The notes under the pieces: model-generated | Databases searched by the model: none | The model's input: only the letters and a program-made list of their open reading frames with translations | Told to the model about the DNA's origin: nothing | DNA from: a virus | Lineage: Duplodnaviria; Caudoviricetes | Virus record (IMG/VR): IMGVR_UViG_3300035164_000608 | Span: 1 to 29,673 of that record | Reading direction: 5' to 3' (one strand) | DNA: 29,673 nucleotides | Made by a program: the position numbers and the translations under genes | Shown here: positions 2,086 to 28,673 of the stretch, one piece after another | Layout: every line of letters starts with the position of its first letter | Position numbering within the stretch: position 1 is the first letter of the stretch

Positions 2086-2114
2086 TTTACAAACGCAAAA
2101 AAGTATGGTATAAT
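2086..2114 (+). promoter_or_regulatory. Early promoter P2
   Basis: (G)TTTACA 2086-2091, 17-bp spacer, TGn-TATAAT 2109-2114; GTTTAC matches the T4 early -35 consensus. Confidence 0.85.
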
Positions 2115-2169
2115 ATATCTATAAAATGGAAAAAGAAATGATAAAAAGAATAGGAGAAAATCAAAATGA

Positions 2170-2378
2170 CATAGCTACAAGTAACCGACAGGGTGTTGTG
2201 ATGGACAATGAGATAACGAGAAGCACACCGGGATTTACAGGTTTGGTACCACCCAGGGAATCAGCGTCGGAATGTAAAACGTATCCCACCTTATCATGGG
2301 GCCGATTGGTCGGTAAGGTGGATGTCTTGACAACGGCCCCAAAGAATTTGGAGATGGCTAATGCCTAGTCCATCCGAA
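2170..2378 (+). ncRNA. Candidate structured RNA or leader with an H-type pseudoknot (family unknown)
   Basis: GC-richer than its surroundings and downstream of P2. Stems: CCACCTTATC 2286-2295 / GGTAAGGTGG 2312-2321, crossed by TGGGGCCG 2297-2304 / CGGCCCCA 2334-2341; also CCGAC 2185-2189 / GTCGG 2266-2270 and GGGATTTACA 2230-2239 / TGTAA 2273-2277 + ATCCC 2283-2287. Boundaries approximate. Confidence 0.55.
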
Positions 2379-2549
2379 CTTCAATCAATGCTTCCACTAT
2401 TATTACAACTCCTCTTCTTCGCGGTAGCTGGAGCATTGATTGTCGGTACATTCGTTTCTATTATTGGTTTCATGTTTAGACATGCATTGATAATAATTAT
2501 TTTAATAATTTTAACTTTTTTCCTTTACAATTATGAAAAAATGTGGTAG
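2361..2549 (+). CDS. Small hydrophobic (membrane) protein
   Basis: 62 aa with two long hydrophobic stretches; GGAG at 2350-2353 upstream. Confidence 0.6.
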   Translation: MPSPSELQSMLPLLLQLLFFAVAGALIVGTFVSIIGFMFRHALIIIILIILTFFLYNYEKMW

Positions 2550-3484: not shown

Positions 3485-4616
3485 AGGCAAAAAGTCTAAA
3501 AAGAAAACAATCAGATCTAAAGCACGTACTGGCTTAGCTGGTGTACCAGTTGAAAAAGGTTTTGACGCAGTCAAAGAATATTTTCATTTAGAAGTAGATA
3601 AAAAAGACTGTATCAGTCAAGTTAAAGCATGGGTTAAGAAAAACTTTCCTCAACCAGCAAAGTATATCTTAAGTCATCCAGAATGGAAGTTTAATATGAC
3701 TCATCACGCAGCTACTGCATTCTGGTACAACAACGATCTATATAAAAATAATGATCTTGGTAGAGATAAAGCCAAAGAATTTTTAAATGGACTATTTGAT
3801 TATATCATACCTTTAATTGAAACTGGTAAAGAGTTATATAAACAAAAAAGATCAGAACAAAAAGCTAAATCTAATGTTATTAGTATCTCACCTCAAATGA
3901 GATTAGAAAGAAAAATTAGAAATACCATAATGCAAGAATTACTTGAACTAGAAGACCAGTGGATAGAGGGTGAGGATGCCACTATTAATCTTTATGATAG
4001 ATTCAAGTATCACGGCTTAACAAATACTGCAATAAGTCACGTTAAGCCTCAGGTTGAGGGGTGGCTTCTAGATTATGAAGATGCCTATTATAAAAGATGT
4101 GAACAGGCTGTTGAAGGCTACTCCCATGTGAAAAAGTCATCCCTCAAACACCGAATCGACGTATGTAAGTCTATGTTAGAAGACATGGAAAGAATTAAGT
4201 CAGCCTCTAAAGCTACTAGAACTATTAAGATTAGTAAACCTAAAGCGGCTGATAAACAAGTCTCTAAGATGCAATACAAAAAAGAAGATAACGACTTTAA
4301 GATCGTGTCAATACATCCAATACAAATTATTGGTAAGAGAAGACTATACACGTTCAACACAAAACACAGAGAGCTCAATATGTTTTATACTGACGATCCA
4401 AAAGGATTTCAAGTATCAGGTTCAACTTTAAAAAGGTTTGACAAAGAGCAATCTATAAAGATTAGGTTGAGAAAACCTAATGACATTCTACCTTTGGTAC
4501 TGAACAAAACTCCTATTCAACTCCAAAAAGAGCTATCAGCTCTTAAAACGAAAGTTCAAGTACCAAATGGTAGAATCAATAACGATACAATATTATTAAG
4601 GGTTTTAGACAAATGA
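3465..4616 (+). CDS. Hypothetical protein (383 aa, basic)
   Basis: Long ORF with AGGAG RBS, coupled to gp33 by an ATGA overlap; no function recognised. Confidence 0.8.
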   Translation: MGLTALKGKKSKKKTIRSKARTGLAGVPVEKGFDAVKEYFHLEVDKKDCISQVKAWVKKNFPQPAKYILSHPEWKFNMTHHAATAFWYNNDLYKNNDLGRDKAKEFLNGLFDYIIPLIETGKELYKQKRSEQKAKSNVISISPQMRLERKIRNTIMQELLELEDQWIEGEDATINLYDRFKYHGLTNTAISHVKPQVEGWLLDYEDAYYKRCEQAVEGYSHVKKSSLKHRIDVCKSMLEDMERIKSASKATRTIKISKPKAADKQVSKMQYKKEDNDFKIVSIHPIQIIGKRRLYTFNTKHRELNMFYTDDPKGFQVSGSTLKRFDKEQSIKIRLRKPNDILPLVLNKTPIQLQKELSALKTKVQVPNGRINNDTILLRVLDK

Positions 4617-4855
4617 AGTTAGAAGATCAATTTTTAACTAAGTCTAAATTTACAAAGCTTATCGAAAAAACGGTAGCCGAACTTAAGATTCCGTACATGG
4701 ATGCTATCATCAAGGTATGTGAAAATAACGAGATCGAAATGGATGATGTAAGAAAATTTGTATCACCTGTTATCAAAGATAAGCTTGAGGCAGAAGCAAT
4801 GGAACTAAACTTGTTACCAAAGAAGAATTCTATTGATGAGTCTTTATTTAAATAA
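4613..4855 (+). CDS. gp33: Late promoter transcription co-activator gp33
   Basis: 80 aa, KF..IE..V.....YMDAI...CE.N.IE.....K.VS..IKDKLEAEA..LNLL pattern; next to gp32. Confidence 0.9.
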   Translation: MKLEDQFLTKSKFTKLIEKTVAELKIPYMDAIIKVCENNEIEMDDVRKFVSPVIKDKLEAEAMELNLLPKKNSIDESLFK

Positions 4856-4910: not shown

Positions 4911-5795
4911 ATGTCATTTGAAACTTTAAAGCGCAATCGAGGCGCGAACATTTCCAAAATAGTACAAGCCGCTCAAGCCACTAATACTGGCGAAACAAAG
5001 TCATATGTTGATGAGCGTATTTGGAAGCCAACTGTCGATAAGGCAGGTAATGGTTATGCTGTACTTAGATTTCTCCCTGGTAAAGATGGAGAGATTCCTT
5101 TCGTAAGATACTGGGATCATGGGTTCAAAGGGCCTACTGGTTTATGGTATATCGAAAACTCATTAACTTCAATTGGTCAAACTGATCCAGTTGGAGAACT
5201 CAACTCTAAACTTTGGAACTCTGGTATCGAGTCTGATAAAGAAAAAGCTCGTACTCAAAAGAGAAGATTGCATTATGTAACTAACGTGTATGTCGTTAGT
5301 GATTCATCAGCACCGCAAAACGAAGGTAAGGTATTTCTATACAAGTTTGGTAAGAAGATCTTCGATAAGATATTCGATCAAATGAATCCTGAATTTGCAG
5401 ATGAAACCCCTGTAGATCCATTTGATTTCTGGGAAGGTGCAGACTTTAAACTTAAGATAAGAAATGTAGAAGGTTATAGAAACTACGATAAGTCAGAGTT
5501 CTCTTCTCCTACTCCATTATTAGAAGGTTCTGAAGAAAAGCTCAAAGAAGTGTATGAAAACATGCACGATATAACTGAGTTTACTAATCCTAAGAACTAT
5601 AAAACTTATGATGAACTTAAGACTAAGTTAATGAAAGTTCTTGGTGAAGAAGCAAACGCAGGTTCTTATGCAATGAGAGAAGAAGTAAGGATCAATGAAC
5701 CAGTGGCTGCAGTAGAACCTGTAACTGCTGAAGAAGTATCTGATGAAGATCAAGATACTATGTCTTACTTCGCTAAATTAGCAAAAGAAGACTAA
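4911..5795 (+). CDS. gp32: Single-stranded DNA-binding protein gp32
   Basis: DERIWKPTVDKAGNGYAVLRFLP, HGFKGPTGLWYIENS, FGKKIFDKI, PFDFWEGADFKLKIR, YRNYDKSEF and an acidic tail. Confidence 0.97.
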   Translation: MSFETLKRNRGANISKIVQAAQATNTGETKSYVDERIWKPTVDKAGNGYAVLRFLPGKDGEIPFVRYWDHGFKGPTGLWYIENSLTSIGQTDPVGELNSKLWNSGIESDKEKARTQKRRLHYVTNVYVVSDSSAPQNEGKVFLYKFGKKIFDKIFDQMNPEFADETPVDPFDFWEGADFKLKIRNVEGYRNYDKSEFSSPTPLLEGSEEKLKEVYENMHDITEFTNPKNYKTYDELKTKLMKVLGEEANAGSYAMREEVRINEPVAAVEPVTAEEVSDEDQDTMSYFAKLAKED

Positions 5796-27600: not shown

Positions 27601-28673
27601 GTGAAGAAACTGTATTAGAAACTATTGAAGATAGAACTATCCAATCAGTTTTATTAAATGATTGTAGAGCACGTAAAGTTTACTTTAGATGCGAAGGACT
27701 TAGACCAAACACCAGAGTATTTACTTTCTTCGATGGAGTAAATATATCAGACTTTACAAAAACAGTGCCCGGCCCTGGTGGATTTGAATTTTACGGATCA
27801 AATGAAGAAGATTTTGGTAATTCGCTAAGAGATATAACTTCTCATCCAGACACTCCTACTGCCACGATGTTAACAGATGCAAATGGTACTATATCTGGAA
27901 ACTTCATTATACCTAATAATTCTAATTTAAAATTTGAGGTTGGAACTAAAGAATTTAAAATAATGGACATTAGTGTCAATAACGAGAAAAATGCAGCTTG
28001 TATAGCTCGAGCTCCGTTTACGGCTAAAGGCTGGCTAGACACGAAAGAAGCAGAGGTAAGGTCAACAAGAGTTCTTAACGTTCAAGGTTTTACTATAACA
28101 TACAATAACTCTTCTGGTGGAGACGGCGGCGGAGGCGGCGATGATCCGCCACAGTTTACTACTCCGATCGATGGCAATAACATGTATTCTAACGACGCGC
28201 AATCAACTGACTTATCTGGTAGTATTGATACATCAATAGACGATGTTGGGTCAGAAGAAGATCCTGATGTAGGTCCTGCAGGTGATACACTTTGCTTACT
28301 TGAAGATATGAAAGTGATGCTAAATGGTAGAATATCTGAAGTCACTAATGTTAAAATTGGTGATGTAGTTTCATACGGCACCGTCATAGACGTTATACAT
28401 AAGCATATGAGAAATGGATATTATATAATTAATGATGAACTTAAAATTACAAACGATCACCCAGTGTTAGTAAATGGAAGTTGGAAGAAAGCAGAAGATG
28501 TTGTAGTCGGTGAGTACATAAATAATGTAAAAGTAGAATCAACAAGATATGTAGAAAAAGTAGTTCCAACAGTCTTTATAGCAACAAACACTGAAAGTTA
28601 CGATGTATATTGTGGAGATAATATTTACACAGTGCACGGTGACTACAGACAAGTATTACAAAAAGCGAGTTAA
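24621..28673 (+). CDS. VrlC/DUF4815-like large virion protein (N-terminal portion) with a C-terminal Hint domain
   Basis: Y.DDF.....YHKILF..G.ALQARELTQ.Q.ILQ.QI.RFG..IFKEG, APGADR, DNGQRD..YD, RFTMKDIG.LE.R...LE, K.GF.VDNF; from C1225: CLLEDMKV...ITNDHPV...W..A.D...TVHG. Confidence 0.85.
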   Translation: MATTLTSNTFTSTYKDDFRDSDHYHKILFNTGVALQARELTQIQTILQKQISRFGDNIFKEGAVVRPGGANLQSKYEFIKLDNTTDVTNNATWIGATFQGDTSTIKVKVLQYIAAENGDPGTVYVQYLNTGTAPATTTVRVTEGETLNSIAPLAGEALKVQTGNDPVGVGILGTLKSGVYYARGNFVFTEDQSKVISKYSDTLEDTLGFRVVEDVVTVSDDTGLFDNQGAVPNTSAPGADRYRIKLTIALESEITGTESFVPVAKIVDGVIFNTNNTVSAYNIPNELIAKRISENSGDYIVKPYTANFQLDSENTHLLLKVSDGIAVVEGFRAARNFPTSIRIAKPTGTKKIVNDVVPVDFGNFVVVNPLTDSSGNTPNIATLEKLNLQDSAVYSAGSTIGTARVKAVTEDGAKYRFHLFDVKMNSGQAFRDVKSIGTSSTNYFKPELEGTPPKAVIKDVMNNTSIFPLSIRRPANIENANYVAQRRFQITAVGGTASLPNLSGNPGETYTNTGDWVVSASDSDIITTGLTISGNGTVSSQISGLPSSTMTVEVLAYVNKGQASAKTKNLTTRTISVAGGQSQIKLGKADIFDIVSHVKASDSSVSFSNRYFLDNGQRDNHYDIGALNLKTGQSAPADSSTITYRYFEHTTGGDFFAAQSYASPITYATIPSYRKSNGRVIRLYNALDFRSIKDGADSEFSNTGAGARVLELPQPGQAVSADITYHLADSGKLVVNKQGIISFIRGGSSFNPPYPPRPDETLGLYDIRLNPNTLNDSDVSIRKIDHRRFTMKDIGTLENRLSKLEEFASLSALEIDTRHFQVLDSAGTDRTKSGFVVDNFVDHTRSATNFADYRAAVDPIEKVLRPAFKDQNVKLVFDSDASLALGTVRRGDNVYLNYTESTYINQNLASKAIQINPFNVVIYDGVITLSPASDEWRDVDRLPDKIIQGGSRLANQNAFNWGNWAWNWAGVPLENLNIGSQVNRFGNQVNRVVSEETVLETIEDRTIQSVLLNDCRARKVYFRCEGLRPNTRVFTFFDGVNISDFTKTVPGPGGFEFYGSNEEDFGNSLRDITSHPDTPTATMLTDANGTISGNFIIPNNSNLKFEVGTKEFKIMDISVNNEKNAACIARAPFTAKGWLDTKEAEVRSTRVLNVQGFTITYNNSSGGDGGGGGDDPPQFTTPIDGNNMYSNDAQSTDLSGSIDTSIDDVGSEEDPDVGPAGDTLCLLEDMKVMLNGRISEVTNVKIGDVVSYGTVIDVIHKHMRNGYYIINDELKITNDHPVLVNGSWKKAEDVVVGEYINNVKVESTRYVEKVVPTVFIATNTESYDVYCGDNIYTVHGDYRQVLQKAS
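28293..28640 (+). other. Hint (hedgehog/intein-like) autoprocessing domain within the 1350-aa CDS
   Basis: Starts at Cys1225, has block B TxDHP, and ends V-H-G instead of V-H-N; about 116 aa with no endonuclease. Confidence 0.8.

Follow-up and report, generated by a model that had tools for sequence, protein, structure and literature searches.

The window analysed here, that is, the whole stretch of 29,673 nucleotides, is a fragment of an uncultured T4-like phage, 29.7 kb long and 16% complete. It encodes a late-promoter regulator (4613-4855) and a single-strand DNA-binding protein (4911-5795); the best matches of gp32 stand at 52-54% in a protein comparison, which gives no host assignment. 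Amid small early genes and four repeated sigma70-type promoters lies a structured element, with a G+C content of 0.48 at 2201-2400 against about 0.29 on either flank. A GC-richer stretch of about 200 nt and a consensus promoter upstream of it had both been reported in the first-pass annotation of this DNA, and both are present. The features of the locus are the following.

2086..2114, plus strand: sigma70-type early promoter, TTTACA-17-TATAAT, recognised by its sequence and predicted to be active
1619, 2086, 2524 and 2966: four repeated promoter modules of the window, the module at 2086 being the element's promoter
2126..2368, plus strand: 80-codon open reading frame overlapping the RNA, judged not to be a gene
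2152..2156, plus strand: Shine-Dalgarno-like (SD-like) AGGAG, a sequence match
2166..2174, plus strand: minigene AUG-ACA-UAG (Met-Thr-stop), putatively translated
2174..2184, plus strand: P0, a 5' mini-hairpin (GC-N4-6-GU) with AA after it; base 3 of the stop codon serves as its first G
2185..2270, plus strand: three-way junction P1-P3 plus P4, with covariation
2185-89/2266-70, plus strand: P1, in 19 sequence versions
2192-99/2223-29, plus strand: P2, with one bulge and a purine-rich GA..GAA tip, in 36 sequence versions
2232-36/2258-62, plus strand: P3
2237-39/2254-57, plus strand: conserved internal loop ACA/CARG, joining P3 to P4
2240-42/2251-53, plus strand: P4, whose loop pairs with the strand 3' of P1
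2245..2285, plus strand: PK1, GGUAC (2245-49) with GUAUC (2281-85), in 10 sequence versions and with all pairs formed in 66 of 68 variants
2286..2341, plus strand: PK2, an H-type pseudoknot directly after PK1, with S1 at 2286-95/2312-21 and S2 at 2297-2304/2334-41
2361..2549, plus strand: small hydrophobic ORF, the downstream neighbour outside the element

The minigene with its SD (2152-2174) and helices P2-P4 were absent from the first-pass annotation. Elsewhere in the window, a palindrome, TTAACATGTTAA, occurs at 1596-1607, 2043-2054 and 2943-2954, upstream of three of the early promoters, and is possibly an operator or a cassette junction; GTTAAC words resembling it precede some members of the element family whose minigene carries an Arg codon. 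At about 28300-28673 lies the C-terminus of a 1350-aa structural protein, which by eye resembles a Hint/intein-type domain.

That the stretch is a protein gene, read in the 80-codon frame, is a notion we regard as practically dismissed. Of 37 variants, 18 have the frame open, almost all of them carrying the long leader, but it is closed in the other 19, and frame-shifting indels occur in the region. Across the gap-free core, 32 of 38 codon variants are non-synonymous and six synonymous, the variation is even across codon positions, and no PHROG or Pfam family matches the frame. In the long-leader lineage the frame stays open over indels of 0, +6 and +9 and overlaps the next start codon, with no synonymous bias. 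Readthrough of the minigene stop, or a frameshift, into a longer product was rejected as the downstream frames are unconserved. The earlier judgement that the region holds no convincing ORF thus agrees with a frame lacking coding selection, and the test proposed with it, a conserved peptide without covariation in the stems as the mark against an RNA, came out in favour of RNA.

The element (2174-2341 in the window) belongs to a family of roughly 170 bases with more than 100 marine viral and metagenome loci and 68 distinct variants. A search by neighbour proteins gave 50 loci, among them copies with paired changes, and successive core patterns gave 56, 58 and then 103 viral loci, one of the 103 being a chance match (L427). 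Ten metagenome loci included two chance matches (L173 and L174), and further chance matches were removed from one set (eight of 66 loci) and from the leader-only matches (20 of 67). With R2, a covariance model built on the 5' domain, the element turned up in 28 of the 80 loci surrounding a conserved neighbour gene, including a clade that the first core patterns had missed, and a leader pattern added three loci with a further compensatory change in P3. The 68 variants derive from 105 loci including the window, six truncated loci being left out.

T4-like fragments are among the members, and so is a complete jumbo phage of 328 kb, G035; these are two unrelated virus groups. The helicase of G035 is closest to those of other jumbo phages, with 50-54% to rhizobial and Pseudomonas jumbo phages. 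All 22 matching records (12 of 34, 5 of 5 and 5 of 5), including the complete G035, carry one copy, a count made with R2, which may miss diverged copies, on records that are mostly fragments. With the window element and the jumbo variant as queries, blastn against 50,697 GenBank phage records returned short chance matches only. Rfam 15 gave no gathering-level match in the window, only noise at E<=10 within 1900-2700, and no match over the element in 10 and a further 16 member loci, ribozyme families included; in the first-pass annotation, too, the RNA could not be matched by eye to a known family. A strict-pattern scan of GTDB returned two matches. One (L109) was rejected as a cellular homologue, being a chance match inside a coding region. 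The other (L110) is the same phage region, element included, within a Balneola MAG; its contig is probably phage DNA binned in error and gives no host evidence. By this strict pattern there is thus no cellular homologue. No description of the family was found in the literature searches, nor any motif match in four tables of Fremin 2023 (PMC10690425), part of one of which carries no sequences; a fragment of the element may be among the 8,495 candidates of that study. We conclude that the RNA class is genuine and apparently undescribed, its novelty lying at the level of RNA class and architecture.

The fold leaves us in very little doubt that the element is a real structured RNA. In a set of 35 sequences, 98.3% of 945 cells were paired, as against 34-47% in slid controls, with two-sided change in 10 of 27 pairs; in 39 sequences, whose alignment was fitted to the model, 12 of 22 pairs changed on both sides. 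A tree of the 68 variants, derived from the very sequences under test, carried 72 coincident double changes, compared with 12.4±3.6 (maximum 22) for 60 wrong column matchings. P2 was mis-registered in some clades of this set (46-68 of 68 paired); in a separate count it has 6-7 bp in 65 of the 68 variants. The unpaired bases ACA/CARG, UARA and the AA before P1 are invariant, the invariance of UUUACA and CARGGAA being partly by construction because the core motif was the search key. Nested minimum-free-energy folding alone gave no signal (z -0.10). P0 is weakly supported: C-G forms in 68 of 68 variants and the second pair is G-U in 56, G-C in eight and unpaired in four, so that change is one-sided only, and its anchors were part of the parsing pattern. 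An alternative pairing of the 5' GUAA with UUAC was rejected since one-sided changes break its pairs.

The H-type pseudoknot recognised in the first-pass annotation (10 bp with one G-U at 2286-2295/2312-2321, crossed by 8 bp at 2297-2304/2334-2341) is present and has covariation behind it. S1 has 7-12 bp in all 67 variants having that region, in 35 versions, and S2 at least 5 bp in 65 of these 67, in 27 versions, decaying in some members. None of 1000 dinucleotide shuffles reached its crossed score of 47 (mean 31, maximum 45), and it ranked top of 422 window tiles, the runner-up being the same region on the opposite strand. The AUG-NNN-stop look of its loop L3 was dropped as a candidate feature (AUG in 44 and AUU in 18 of 67). 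In 64 of 68 variants S1 begins at the base immediately following PK1, which suggests a continuous stack of the two pseudoknots. Between P1 and the PK1 strand runs an A-rich linker (2271-80, 10 nt in the window) of 10-11 nt in all 68 variants. A second crossed pair had been proposed earlier, of which CCGAC/GTCGG is the real helix P1; its crossing partner GGGATTTACA/TGTAA..ATCCC is not conserved, TGTAA occurring in the linker of only seven of 68 variants and GAUUU pairing instead with GAAUC in P3. The true crossing pair is PK1. Similarly, the alternative hairpin GCCGA-TTGG-TCGGT can be read in the sequence, but by eye, uncounted, it competes with both covarying stems. Overall, every helix of the junction and the pseudoknots covaries, no coding signature is seen and a sigma70-like promoter lies upstream of 59 of the 68 variants, which supports the proposal of a phage non-coding RNA with its own early promoter.

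The 5' end of the element is joined to a very short reading frame. An SD-like word, loosely defined, precedes an AUG in all 68 variants, and a stop follows within four sense codons, the types being MT-UAG (52), MRR-UAA (seven), ML-UAG (four), MDYG-UAG (two), MRQ-UAA (two) and MKEP-UAG (one). Among 84 other promoter-SD-AUG cassettes of related loci, taken as a control, 81 open at least 30 codons, and the two short ones stand before a different structured-looking element. A rule selected the AUG, namely the nearest upstream AUG with an SD and an in-frame stop; in the control scan the same rule took an upstream AUG of the long frame in two of 16 element loci. The AUG so picked lies at only three distances from the 5' hairpin, while the bases preceding it vary. 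The short frame outlasts two +6 insertions (MDYG and MKEP), uses a new UAA in the nine variants that lost UAG, and is retained within operons having no promoter directly upstream (L169-172, L178 and L356).

In all 68 variants, the first G of the hairpin falls on the third codon position of the minigene frame (UAG in 59, CGG or AGG in nine). The nine Arg-codon variants end in UAA-U, a strong stop, which counts against the ribosome-parking model proposed below. No sense codon is rarer than CGG, with 2 of 8084 codons in the window and 49 of 77,493 in G035, and UAG-C ends none of 19 long genes in the window and two of 197 in G035. Counted from the terminating P-site codon, P1 starts at +16 or +17 in 59 variants and at +12 in nine. 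Initiating ribosomes protect to +16 in the section of PMC5737220 that bears on this, and so a ribosome would abut the core in most variants and not enter it.

The genes downstream differ widely and are unrelated small hypothetical proteins. The place of the hydrophobic ORF at 2361..2549 is taken by unrelated genes in other members, and this ORF is present without the element in relatives, whose empty sites have the same promoter-SD-AUG directly on the protein gene. A hairpin (2353-2374) that was thought to hold the start codon of this ORF keeps its outer 5 bp in six of the 26 variants preceding the gene and folds no better than shuffles (z -1.2). With that hairpin unconserved, the downstream gene variable and the gene retained by empty-site relatives, the earlier idea of a cis-regulatory switch of the membrane-protein gene is not supported. 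A new promoter follows 7-46 nt after the element in six variants, one locus (L358) has by eye a terminator-like hairpin after it, and in three others (L089, L060 and L082) no SD-led gene was found within 330 nt. The stretch of about 250 nt that follows the element in these three (1420-1240 on the minus strand in L089) looks GC-richer and structured, with no Rfam match. Most members lie 5' of a gene, as a cis role would have, and tRNAs are nearby in only some. As an optional cassette that occurs in single copy ahead of many unrelated genes, the element probably acts in trans rather than as a gene-specific switch, and an optional free-standing RNA gene fits better than a switch of one gene.

RNA contigs from seven runs of six studies contain parts of the element at low depth; they give no ends or strand, and DNA is possibly present. 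One is identical over 2218-2434 and one has a compensatory swap (2290-91/2316-17). Several bridge the element and the next gene, and some begin upstream of the promoter or predicted start site. None of the joints listed for the seven runs skips the element, in contigs that lose rare forms, and no Rfam intron matched. In run X6 a minus-strand late gene has no cover beyond about 5720, while run X15 continues (one run). Transcription of the element is plausible, a discrete RNA is a candidate product, and the promoter would drive it.

Several known RNAs share single traits with the element. HDV-like or theta ribozymes have a G at the start of P1, a P3/P1.1 and a catalytic C-N-A-A in J4/2; this likeness was rejected, since C opens S1 in 28 of 31 PK2 variants, the tail of L3 is variable (CAA, UCG, GAGA) and Rfam gave no match. 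T-boxes carry an invariant UGGN bulge for the tRNA NCCA end. UGGUAC of the window varies (CGGAAC, AGGAUC, AGGUAG) and pairs in cis as PK1, and so this candidate was also set aside, as were a tRNA or tmRNA (no ARAGORN match in the window or over the element) and, for want of Rfam support, likenesses to SAM-I, the SRP S-domain, k-turns, twister, pistol and hammerhead. The T4 RNAs rnaC and rnaD are likewise small stable phage RNAs, of 120-140 nt, but they lie in a tRNA cluster and R2 finds no match over them. Lambda bar is a further case of a minigene. Like the axe-txe two-codon minigene (PMC8708949), toxic minigenes (PMC2490762) and the hbs/STAB-SD shield (PMC5737220), the element has SD-AUG-one codon-stop, and a ribosome sitting close to the 5' end can protect RNA; the element differs in its fixed distance to a conserved 170-nt tertiary fold, without which the known cases are described in the relevant parts of these papers. 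The T4 gene 60 cassette is a possible parallel: in the outline given in 10.1101/2022.08.31.505936 it has a UAG or rare Arg codon overlapping a small stem-loop at the A site, and in gene-60 bypass cassettes UAG is swapped for a hungry Arg codon; there the peptide has about 46 residues, against four at most here, where the hairpin has 2 bp and the downstream genes have their own SD-AUG. The manA and wcaG RNAs (RF01745 and RF01761), as introduced in PMC2864571, are orphan structured RNAs of marine T4-like phages too, but their architecture is different and their covariance models do not match. In a related phage locus, manA itself lies at L301:5204-5369, above the gathering score.

Two other elements were observed in related loci. 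One is structured-looking, occupies the same early slot with a promoter-SD-AUG-GUA-UGA head (L305:3766-3940, L307:902-1075 and L319:8659-8830), matches neither Rfam nor R2 and likely has a relative in L328, truncated where that locus begins. A third element, about 100 nt long, has the pattern GUCG..CCUG..CGAC..AAAAUUAA..CAGG.GGG..CCCUCA..AGA, with a CCUG/CAGG versus CCAG/CUGG swap. It occurs at L305:3920-4020, L319, L301:2564-2660, L316, L317, L318, L320, L321, L324, L325, L334, L050:9-77 and L061:700-790 (minus strand), is optional (absent in L307) and has no Rfam match.

Based on the conserved start-stop frame, its spacing from the fold and the cassette behaviour, we hypothesize, with a probability of about 0.4, that the element is a stable RNA, capped by a ribosome and ending in a knot, whose action in trans is directed at the ribosome or a factor associated with it. 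A host ribosome would load at the SD and the two-codon minigene, meet a slowly read A-site codon and dwell there, with the fold just outside the mRNA entrance. The parked ribosome would cap the 5' end against nucleases, while the strong terminal pseudoknot PK2 would block 3' trimming. The stable RNA could then act early in infection through the conserved core of UUUACA, CARGGAA and the UARA linker, its target being the loaded ribosome itself or a ribosome-associated host factor. The ribosomal cap has precedents: initiating ribosomes block RNase J1 in the experiments concerned of PMC5737220, and in the relevant part of PMC8708949 a two-codon minigene may stabilise mRNA in cis.

A protective role in cis, in which the minigene ribosome and an xrRNA-like knot would shield the downstream early mRNA from 5'-3' decay of the RNase J type, is an unlikely alternative. 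In 59 of the 68 variants the element stands at the head of early transcripts, and an SD-led gene usually comes shortly behind it; RNA contigs span it together with the next gene. In the portions of PMC5760640 and PMC12081666 devoted to their structure, flavivirus class-1 xrRNAs have the same order of a three-way junction, with P1, P2 and P3 covarying here, a last hairpin loop pairing 3' of P1 (PK1 here) and a further helix next, together with a short single-stranded 5' leader, and according to the part of PMC5760640 on RNase J1 such an xrRNA blocks this bacterial enzyme in vitro. Two other xrRNA hallmarks are lacking, however: the pairing of 1-3 bp between 5' end and junction is absent (J3/1 takes 17 forms while the 5' GNAA is fixed), and in the window structure PK1 closes a strand of about 31 nt instead of about 15. 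The element is also about twice the size, has a minigene in front and a second pseudoknot behind, comes from bacteriophages and has no Rfam match. Moreover, each genome has one copy despite many early promoters, some members are followed by a new promoter or, by eye, by the terminator-like hairpin, and empty-site relatives keep the same genes. A new self-cleaving ribozyme class, possibly gated by a ribosome on the leader, would suit a compact double pseudoknot with invariant unpaired bases that is independent of the downstream gene, but the Rfam searches of the window and of 26 member loci found no ribozyme, PK2 is without HDV-like features and S2 decays in some members, which makes this reading improbable.

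We give still less credence to a metabolite riboswitch or attenuator of the downstream genes. The 5' position, the pocket-like conserved core and a uORF as in attenuators would be in line with it, and the manA and wcaG candidates of marine T4-like phages are a precedent in the section of PMC2864571 describing them; against it, there is no conserved expression platform, the downstream genes are unrelated and some members face a new promoter. Equally remote is a protein-binding RNA acting in trans whose minigene is a by-product of insertion behind a promoter-SD-AUG cassette. Empty sites do have this cassette on the protein gene, and the second element in the same slot also starts AUG-GUA-UGA, so the SD-AUG may be left over from the cassette, its stop serving solely to bar ribosomes from the fold; yet SD and AUG persist with diverged spacers and where no promoter cassette is directly upstream, and the third element, by eye, follows promoters without SD-AUG. 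A bait or sensor for ribosome-dependent A-site endonucleases, that is, RelE-type host-defence toxins whose cut would free the fold at its first paired G, is quite improbable as well, if a little less so. RelE cuts after codon nucleotide 2 and prefers Py-Pu-G codons such as UAG, in the cleavage data concerned of PMC2807027, and in all 68 variants the codon register would place such a cut at UA|G or CG|G/AG|G; the early promoter and the optional cassette in a variable region are also consistent with this. The register nevertheless provides roughly a single independent test, from the Arg-codon clade, with a chance probability of 1 in 3; no connection to a toxin came to light, and a single-copy decoy would compete with all cellular mRNA.

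A further and distinctly doubtful idea is a new class of ribosome-engaging phage RNA: a ribosome would be held on the minigene, its A site poorly decoded, and the knotted domain would act on that ribosome, perhaps serving ribosome-dependent defence toxins as bait or trigger. If this were true, cleavage by such a toxin at UA|G or CG|G would release the RNA exactly at its first paired base, and an RNA-only counter-defence would be common to T4-like and jumbo phages.

Novelty of mechanism is not claimed here. The findings describe an RNA class outside Rfam, a cassette that has moved between two phage groups, and indicate that 80-codon 'hypothetical proteins' in such phages can be mis-called RNA genes. 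The small size, the minimal variants (L170 and L343) and the 68 natural versions make the RNA testable in vitro without its uncultured host. The start-stop frame is obligatory and keeps a constant distance from the tertiary fold, which suggests that the RNA may use the ribosome as its cap or its target.
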